A stretch of 64,000 nt of DNA. Source: Eledone cirrhosa. Taxonomy: Eukaryota. The translations under genes and the position numbers were made by a program. The stretch's first letter is position 1. Each line of letters opens with the position of its first letter. This document shows positions 38,202 through 39,993 of the stretch, in pieces. The DNA lies in contig OZ024747.1 in the NCBI GenBank assembly GCA_964016885.1, positions 68,820,001-68,884,000 on the forward strand. The letters run 5' to 3'. The notes below the pieces were generated by a model, which worked only from the letters and a program-made list of their open reading frames with translations, searched no databases and was not told the origin of the DNA.

Positions 38202-39993
38202 TTATATATATATATATATATATATATATATATATATATATATATATATATATATATATAATATATATATATATATATAATATATATATATATAATATAT
38301 ATATATATATATATATATATATATATATATATATATATATATAATATATATATATATATATAATATATATATATATAATATATATATATATATATAATAT
38401 ATATATATATAATATATATATATATATAATATATATATATATATATAATATATATATATATAATATATATATATATATATATATATATATATATATATAT
38501 ATATATATATAATATATATATATATAATATATATATATATATAATATATATATATATATATAATATATATATATATATATATATATATATAATATATATA
38601 TATATATAATATATATATATATATATATAATATATATATAATATATATATATATATATATATATATATATATATATATATAATATATATATAATATATAT
38701 ATATATATATATATATATATATAGGAACCAGTAAGACCCCGACGGCTGAACTCAAGCCGTTTCGACGGCTAAGTCCAGAATTAGCCGTCGAAACGGCTTG
38801 AGTTCAGCCGTCGGGGTCTTACTGGTTCCTATTACCCACTCTACTACCCCAAGTATTGAGTACTTTGGTGCGTTATGGTCCACCTGGTTCCTTACCACAT
38901 TTCCTTTGTTATATATATATATATATATACATATATATATATATATATATATATAATATAATATATATATATATATATATATTATATATATATATATATA
39001 ATATATATATATATATATAATATATATATATATATATATATATATATATATATAATATATATATATATATAATATATATATATATATAATATATATATAT
39101 ATAATATATATATATATAATATATATATATATATATATATATATACATAATATATATATATATAATATATATATATATATATATATATATATATATATAT
39201 ATATATAATATATATATATATAATATATATATACATAATATATATATATATAATATATATATATATAATATATATATATATATATATATATATATATATA
39301 TATATATATATATATATATATATATATATATATATATAATATATATATATATATATATATATATATATATATATACATATGTATGTATATATATATATAT
39401 AAGTGTGTATATATATATATATAATATATATATATATAATATATATATATATATAATATATATATATATATATTATATATATATATATAATATATATATA
39501 TATATATAATATATATATATATATATAATATGTATATATATATATATATAATATATATATATATATAATATATATATATATATATATATATATATATATA
39601 TAATATATATATATATATATATATATATAATATATATATATATTATATATATATATATATACATATGTATGTATATATATATATATAAGTGTGTATATAT
39701 ATATATATAATATATATATATATAATATATATATCTATATATATAATATATATATATATATATATATAATATATATATATATTATATATATATATATATA
39801 TATATAATATATATATATATTATATATATATATATATATATATATATATATATATATATATATATATAATATATATATATATTATATATATATTATATAT
39901 ATATATATATATATATATATATATATATATATATATATATATATATAATATATATATATATTATATATATATATATATATATATATATATATA
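38202..39993. repeat. (TA)n field with TAA interruptions
   Basis: Direct inspection; contains the family A element. Confidence 0.95.
38721..38910 (+). mobile_element. family A fold-back element
   Basis: Perfect 52-bp arms 38721-38832 with an 8-nt loop; contains the hammerhead 3' half GAAACGGC..GCCGTC; lies inside a long TA tract. Confidence 0.75.

Follow-up and report, generated by a model that had tools for sequence, protein, structure and literature searches.

Why should a long palindrome turn beside one half of a hammerhead ribozyme? The question is posed by positions 38,721-38,912 of the window, by which we mean the whole 64,000-nucleotide stretch of Eledone cirrhosa DNA (contig OZ024747.1) analysed here. 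A preliminary description had read the right arm as the helix II 3′ strand, GAAAC, helix III, GTC and GGGGTC, had noted that CTGANGA is missing upstream and that an inverted arm stands in its place, and had proposed that nascent cDNA snapped back on the ribozyme's own hairpin. Both readings of the letters hold for this copy, which contains the 3′ half of a type I hammerhead from a retroelement end. Because the 5′ half is missing, it has no complete hammerhead core and holds no intact ribozyme.

The two arms (38,721-38,772 and 38,781-38,832) comprise 52 consecutive, perfectly complementary bases on either side of an 8-nt loop, and an unpaired, one-sided tail adjoins the right arm. The whole palindrome is embedded in (TA)n, and with such sequence on both flanks a target-site duplication is unreadable. 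We number from the A of a conserved AGT at window position 38,772 as +1, which puts the helix II 3′ strand at +11 to +18 and the predicted ribozyme cut after +41. On the reverse strand, the inverted, tail-less arm (38,721-38,772) runs from element position +61 back to +10/+11, and its outer end, which lies at +61 in most copies, shares TAT with the (TA)n target. On the forward strand, the tailed arm starts at the +1 A (38,772), a likely capped transcription start in native loop II. It continues through the helix II 3′ strand (38,782-38,789), whose native partner is not in this copy, and through the GAAA half of the core with helix III and GTC (38,790-38,812, cleavage being predicted after 38,812). 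The helix I 3′ strand and the rest of the pLTR follow (38,813-38,832), up to a putative inner priming site, CCTAT, at +61; TA-repeat loose ends at position 5516 of locus L032 fall at the equivalent of this site. The forward-strand tail of ~80 nt (38,833-38,912) leads to a putative outer priming site, where TAT is again common with the target, and in whole elements continues into the ORF region. The helix III loop is normally the palindrome TGAGCTCA; here each arm carries a C>T change in it. At the junction the arms overlap by 1 nt with no extra G. An apparent asymmetry between arms in loop III (T in tailed and mostly C in inverted arms, 30 loci) was discarded as an effect of query selection, since unselected copies have C in both. 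By its sequence, the locus is what remains of a Hydra-clade Penelope-like retrotransposon, a dead, head-to-head, 5′-truncated stump. Short copies of this kind number in the tens of thousands, and taken singly this one is neutral and dead. The inverted, 5′-truncated arrangement with a one-sided tail is already published for such elements and, in the accessible text of those reports, standard (PMC8557442, PMC3846280).

Un-inverted copies supply the missing half. In them the helix I 5′ strand is followed by TTGANAA, the helix II 5′ strand and a ~40-nt loop, which leads into the half present at 38,721-38,912; the native ribozyme lies ~50 nt upstream and its helix II 5′ strand ~40 nt upstream of the turn. 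The hairpin that the preliminary description had taken for helix II was therefore created by the inversion, its 5′ strand being the inverted arm. The description had also predicted CTGANGA upstream of this hairpin in the un-inverted consensus and had let the proposal stand or fall by it; the core found is TTGANAA, with the long loop II in between. In this core (U3-A8) N is G, T, C or A and the remainder is mostly kept, with a few CTGAGAA or ATGANAA. Across 13 native copies (8 of subfamily A and 5 of subfamily B), 90.5% of cells are paired, compared with 25-51% in slid controls, and 0 of 500 shuffles matched this. Helix II covaries (G-C>A-U and U-A>A-U) in 5 of the 13, but because both changes represent one subfamily split, the independent covariation events are few. 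When three native motifs were folded by energy, two adopted the shape of a hammerhead, at z = -1.1 to -2.2, a weak outcome that was not counted as support. Rfam had 254 matches in the window, and the 150 of these that were listed include no hammerhead family. As far as its letters tell, the native un-inverted form is a type I hammerhead with three helices around the core, for which self-cleavage at GUC is predicted. Loci L098 and L229 belong to a subfamily that combines C3 with an A8 core, a mismatch predicted to weaken cleavage.

The U3-A8 variant is known from Cercyon of Schistosoma mansoni (Cervera and de la Pena 2014, PMC4209133). As described there, the minimal hammerheads of Penelope-like elements, Cercyon included, share with ours the U3-A8 core, a long helix II with an unpaired 5′ base, the G10.1-C11.1 pair, a short helix I, a palindromic loop III and opposite-strand pairs. 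They differ in that helix III is here long enough for a monomer fold and in the likely transcription start within loop II. The canonical CTGANGA hammerhead expected of the Hydra clade is absent from our element. The Hydra hammerheads listed in PMC8557442 have CTGANGA cores and short loops, whereas in ours the core is U3-A8, loop II spans ~40 nt and helix III has 5 bp; that of Hydra-1_Obim is likewise different (PMC8557442).

The exact 34-nt tail motif has 19,317 matches in the 3.0-Gb genome, and two unselected samples of sequence, of 624 kb and 600 kb, contained 22 and 26 tail-like pieces, respectively. Short stumps predominate, since the tail runs on into the ORF region at only 303 places genome-wide. 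Such very high copy number and near-constant length would suit a short palindrome that is itself mobile and copied whole, in the manner of a MITE. However, junction position and filler vary between copies, and the unequal arms are both 3′-end pieces of a retroelement with an RT-endonuclease ORF. We take the diversity of junctions to refute a MITE-like unit, and give the idea virtually no chance.

Where the arms end was read from the first 90 of the 19,317 tail matches, all at one end of contig C1 and all with the exact tail motif. They yielded 153 parsed arms (81 tailed and 72 inverted, with 9 and 18, respectively, absent or too short). Among 141 arms at risk, 28 stop in the 32 nt from +41 to +10. 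Over the next 14 nt (+9 to -5), around one A in loop II, 103 of the 113 arms in these first 90 copies stop, and between -6 and -60 only one of the 10 remaining arms does so; 23 arm ends were hand-corrected, the uncorrected figure for +9 to -5 being 102 of 111. Ends peak at +1 (20) and +2 (20), the latter being as common as the former in this sample, and both arms end within +9 to -5 in 46 of 69 pairs. The boundary of subfamily B, whose loop II differs, lies at the same AGT, and several arms of that subfamily run on to -4 to -20. A TATA-like box at about -30 is present in subfamily A and was dropped as a promoter mark because subfamily B is without it. A depth step near +1 from two contig runs was also left unused, as contigs cannot show an RNA start and depth is no copy number. 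At L024, L030, L136 and L196, one arm stops at the T-run that immediately precedes +1 and the junction is filled by an A-run or T-run, which suggests stuttering at the template end.

One reading of this boundary is that reverse transcriptase stalls at an RNA structure in loop II, either an AU-rich stem or a contact between loops I and II. Folding does put a stem over -3 to +4 in two of three native motifs, and a spread of end positions across 14 nt would suit a stall. However, the GC-rich helices I-III are passed with about 0.7% loss per base, the same AGT boundary recurs in subfamily B despite its different loop, and a stall predicts no G specifically before +1, where one is common (see below). 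We consider a stall unlikely.

The arm ends bear equally on the snap-back proposal, by which nascent cDNA would fold back on helix II of the ribozyme and self-prime the second arm. There is precedent, in that snap-back is known for R2 proteins (PMC11371274) and self-priming has been proposed for Penelope palindromes (PMC3846280). Here, too, the inverted arm of 38,721-38,912 ends at the helix II 3′ strand, and local palindromes provide short matches at a minority of junctions (for example L097, L107, L114 and L181). The two arms of a copy have the same subfamily haplotype in 48 of 55 pairs, against 26% expected from random RNAs, a match that snap-back would produce too and that under twin priming would mean that both arms come from one RNA or one source locus. 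Yet the native helix II 5′ strand is present in 6 and gone from 84 of the 90 tailed arms; because it is absent, the short copies cannot fold on native helix II, and just 3 of the 153 arm ends fall at the strand itself (+8 to +11). Snap-back of a tailed cDNA also needs the tailed arm to reach furthest, but over 65 pairs (4 non-adjacent pairs left out) the inverted arm is the longer in 25, by at least 3 nt in 16, the tailed arm in 26, and the two are equal in 14. Moreover, two pairs have different subfamily haplotypes on their arms, and the fixed outer end at +61 is left unexplained. The copy at 38,721-38,912 cannot decide the matter by itself because its junction has a 1-nt overlap and no G; taken alone, it fits snap-back on a 1-nt match. 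Over all copies examined we regard the proposal as very improbable. Its corollary, that ribozyme structure sets the inversion centres, survives in so far as the centres are non-random, but they cluster at the likely 5′ end of the RNA and not at the helix. Likewise, the copy at 27,077-27,201, said to turn at helix II, is indeed inverted (and of subfamily B), but its tailed arm, like that of 38,721-38,912, starts at AGT (+1) and reaches the helix II 3′ strand only after 9-10 nt.

A second mark at the turn is an extra base. Genome-wide, 26,368 arms reach +1, and in 14,562 of them the native TTY precedes it, a class that includes arms ending at -3 to -5 and junction mimics. A non-native G stands before +1 in 5,058 of the 11,806 arms without TTY (43%), compared with 1,607 arms that have a G before +2. 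Within the sample, the share of arms with the G was 10 of 13 for ends at +1, compared with 19 of 62 for ends at +2 to +9 (p=0.004). In 21 of 30 G cases listed, the opposite arm leaves the G unexplained, and 9 are ambiguous; no constant sequence precedes the G, positions -3 to -7 being mixed; at least one further G case fits a short match to the tail. Both arms of a copy can bear the G, as at L104. Subfamily B keeps a YTTAGT-like start despite its different loop and has 391 G among 2,069 arms, with just 4 among its 30 listed arms. The AGT start motif has what we take to be a resemblance to an initiator. The element's RNA probably has its capped start at the turn point, within the ribozyme's loop II, and the extra G would be a copy of the cap. 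If the +1 A is the capped start, both arms would be run-off cDNAs.

An extra G is known as a cap mark in full-length L1 insertions (PMC11702581). Penelope of D. virilis likewise has its transcription start, complete with an initiator, in the pLTR (Schostak et al. 2008, PMC2377424), but there the start precedes an intron and the hammerhead, whereas here it would fall within the hammerhead. The same bases could also be read as a 3′ splice site, the template then being a spliced or trans-spliced RNA: a native pyrimidine run is followed by YAG at -1 to +2 in subfamilies A and B, and in Penelope of D. virilis the hammerhead is where the intron ends (PMC4209133). The arms nevertheless retain the AG, and the mixed bases at -3 to -7 in the 30 G cases leave no constant exon or leader upstream. 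Splicing thus appears to us a most improbable source of the boundary. A literature search, in which subscription papers were thinly covered, returned no paper tying Penelope inversion points to a capped start in the ribozyme.

The capped-start reading also bears on template jumps. At 8 independent loci among 30 rows, the cDNA jumps to ORF positions 203-962 and then runs back. The jump departs from +1 to +4 at seven of these loci and from +42 at one, as template ends would lead one to expect. The landings cluster at unit positions 203-254 and 357-358 (L296, L298, L275, L277, L293 and L299), where short transcripts may have their 3′ ends or a protein may be bound. Two mini-tandems, 257 and 299 nt in length, occur at C1:27009640-27009923 (L273/L274) and C2:356030077-356030701; in that of L273/L274 the cDNA left twice in a row from about +1 and landed each time at position 254, which suggests a short RNA end there.

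The outer ends of the palindromes are fixed as well: they fall at TAT sites, one at +61 and the other at about +139, and both sites run on into (TA)n. We consider it quite likely that each of the two cut strands at a (TA)n target primes a separate cDNA, that both cDNAs run off the capped 5′ RNA end in loop II, and that they are then joined head-to-head; transcription start, copied cap and two-strand priming are what we infer here from the copies. For the PAc protein (Poseidon, Anolis carolinensis), which cuts both target strands and extends them, the two internal start sites lie at either edge of the tail (Frangieh et al. 2024, PMC11167929), and its target, like ours, is AT-rich. Unlike in PAc, both cDNA starts here share TAT with the target, and in the available text of that study inverted stumps are not linked to the capped RNA end. 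Similar, too, are twin priming in L1, with a second cDNA from the other target end and an extra G at the full-length 5′ end (PMC11702581), and template jumping in R2, where the enzyme leaves from template ends (PMC11371274). L1 cDNAs, however, copy adjacent, non-overlapping parts of the RNA (PMC11702581), whereas here both would copy the same 61 nt from fixed starts near the front of the RNA, giving a palindrome.

A smaller class of copies concerns the ribozyme cut. All four G of GGGGTC survive in both arms at 302 loci, where no more than 6 bases separate the arms; permitting three G added only 51 loci. Among 50 listed of the 302, inspected by eye, 25 have non-native filler with both arms exactly at the cut site, 14 abut, 8 are joined via a local GTC match and 3 are of other kinds. 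This class suggests that cleavage takes place in vivo and that cleaved RNA is copied in a small share of events, of the order of 1% of tail matches. Uncut RNA is the main template for PAc, as it would be here, and the accessible text reports no RNA reads ending at the cleavage site (PMC11167929); here, by contrast, some DNA copies end exactly there.

Long copies behave differently at +1. Among rows running 1.65 kb into the ORF, 16 of 17 continue upstream past +1, or 13 of 14 when only independent loci are counted, and none stops there; arrays of up to four listed units of 3.53-3.55 kb exist. Separate strand transfer of each cDNA at +1 was rejected as their source, since the long arms are mostly paired and 16 of 17 pass +1. 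Long and tandem copies thus point to a second template without a capped end, which may be a circle or read-through RNA from upstream promoters or arrays. A circle model for Penelope hammerhead RNA was proposed in PMC4209133, and a circle fits. With its promoter in its own ribozyme, the element would produce a capped transcript with a cuttable half at the front and a whole ribozyme at the back. Uncut RNA would give dead run-off palindromes, about nine in ten arms. Were the RNA instead cut at each of its two sites and closed into a circle, it would give the long and tandem copies, by which the pLTR is rebuilt. In this way the ribozyme might be a switch between abortive and productive transposition, and the copies fossils of capped, cleaved and endless templates, a conjecture to which we give rather less than an even chance. 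Head-to-tail arrays of 3-4 listed whole units with the 3.53-3.55-kb period (G000:C1:91476608-91487261, C1:437200349-437210968 and C2:320551591-320558705) are candidates for active source loci or rolling-circle products.

The inverted ends of Penelope-like elements, the rebuilding of the pLTR and hammerhead cutting in vivo are stated as open in the accessible parts of PMC2377424, PMC8557442 and PMC11167929, and pLTR regeneration is said to have no obvious mechanism (PMC2377424). Penelope copies in their thousands lead to base-level predictions for the RNA start, both cDNA starts, the ribozyme cut and the start-less template of long copies, and a turn point at the RNA start would offer a direct test of how these elements copy themselves.

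The element behind the stumps can be read from its longer copies. L032 is arranged as pLTR-ORF-pLTR-tail with a unit of 3,533 nt, and long copies extend upstream through a 1.2-kb UTR to an ORF for RT and a C-terminal endonuclease. The single ORF, a 686-aa frame at L034, has DIES, GATDS, YRDD and VIY..YIG motifs, of which we presume the former to be those of RT, together with a GIY-YIG-type endonuclease. A Pfam search of this ORF gave 0 families, so that the RT and endonuclease assignment rests on motifs; among the 120 listed of 2,272 protein homologues, none has an informative name. The ORF also has RWR at 6, DKT at 86, CNCPDRSIC at 541 (a CxCx5C linker), CNLC at 639 (its sole CxxC) and CKH at 667. 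These match the RW[R/K], DKT, CxCx5C, CxxC and CxH marks and the RT with C-terminal endonuclease given for Hydra-clade EN+ elements, including Hydra-1_Obim and Penelope-13_HM, in the text of Craig et al. (2021, PMC8557442). The ORF also agrees with that account in that CxxC and CxH lie around a conserved E/N and CCHH is absent. Placed by motifs and this published description, the element belongs to the Hydra clade of EN+ Penelope-like elements. In keeping with the same account, the target is (TA)n, an unbroken TA run following 77 of 90 tails and a TA-rich run most of the others, and the copies are inverted, 5′-truncated and tailed on one side; tandems with a period of ~3.53-3.55 kb together with inverted arms have the partial-tandem form that makes pLTRs. 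It departs from the clade as described, generally <3 kb with tails of 30-40 nt (PMC8557442), in its 3.53-kb unit with a 1.2-kb 3′ UTR and its tail of ~80 nt.

The window holds further pieces of the family. The subfamily B copy at 27,000-27,201, on the reverse strand, has the same design, with the tail at 27,000-27,077, the end of the tailed arm at AGT (27,139), a short filler and the inverted arm reaching to 27,201; behind it, after a short TA run, an extra inverted arm-end piece at 27,202-27,240 makes a second small hairpin. Another subfamily B copy lies on the forward strand at 33,897-34,033, where the inverted arm reaches AGT (33,959) and the tailed arm consists of its last bases only, the tail being deleted. 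A tail fragment of the same Penelope family lies on the reverse strand at 60,890-60,944. Hairpins of unrelated repeat families are found at 27,743-27,852, 32,686-32,729, 33,295-33,365, 44,519-44,569 and 45,938-45,979. A perfect palindrome with 75-bp arms at 24,796-24,947 belongs to an unrelated repeat, and similar sequence occurs beside L007, L200 and L202. Elsewhere in the genome, L033 has a LINE-type RT frame, and two long copies are flanked by frames (L031 1090-3150 and L034 5575-9470) that, from their motifs, we take to be Helitron-like helicase/Rep.
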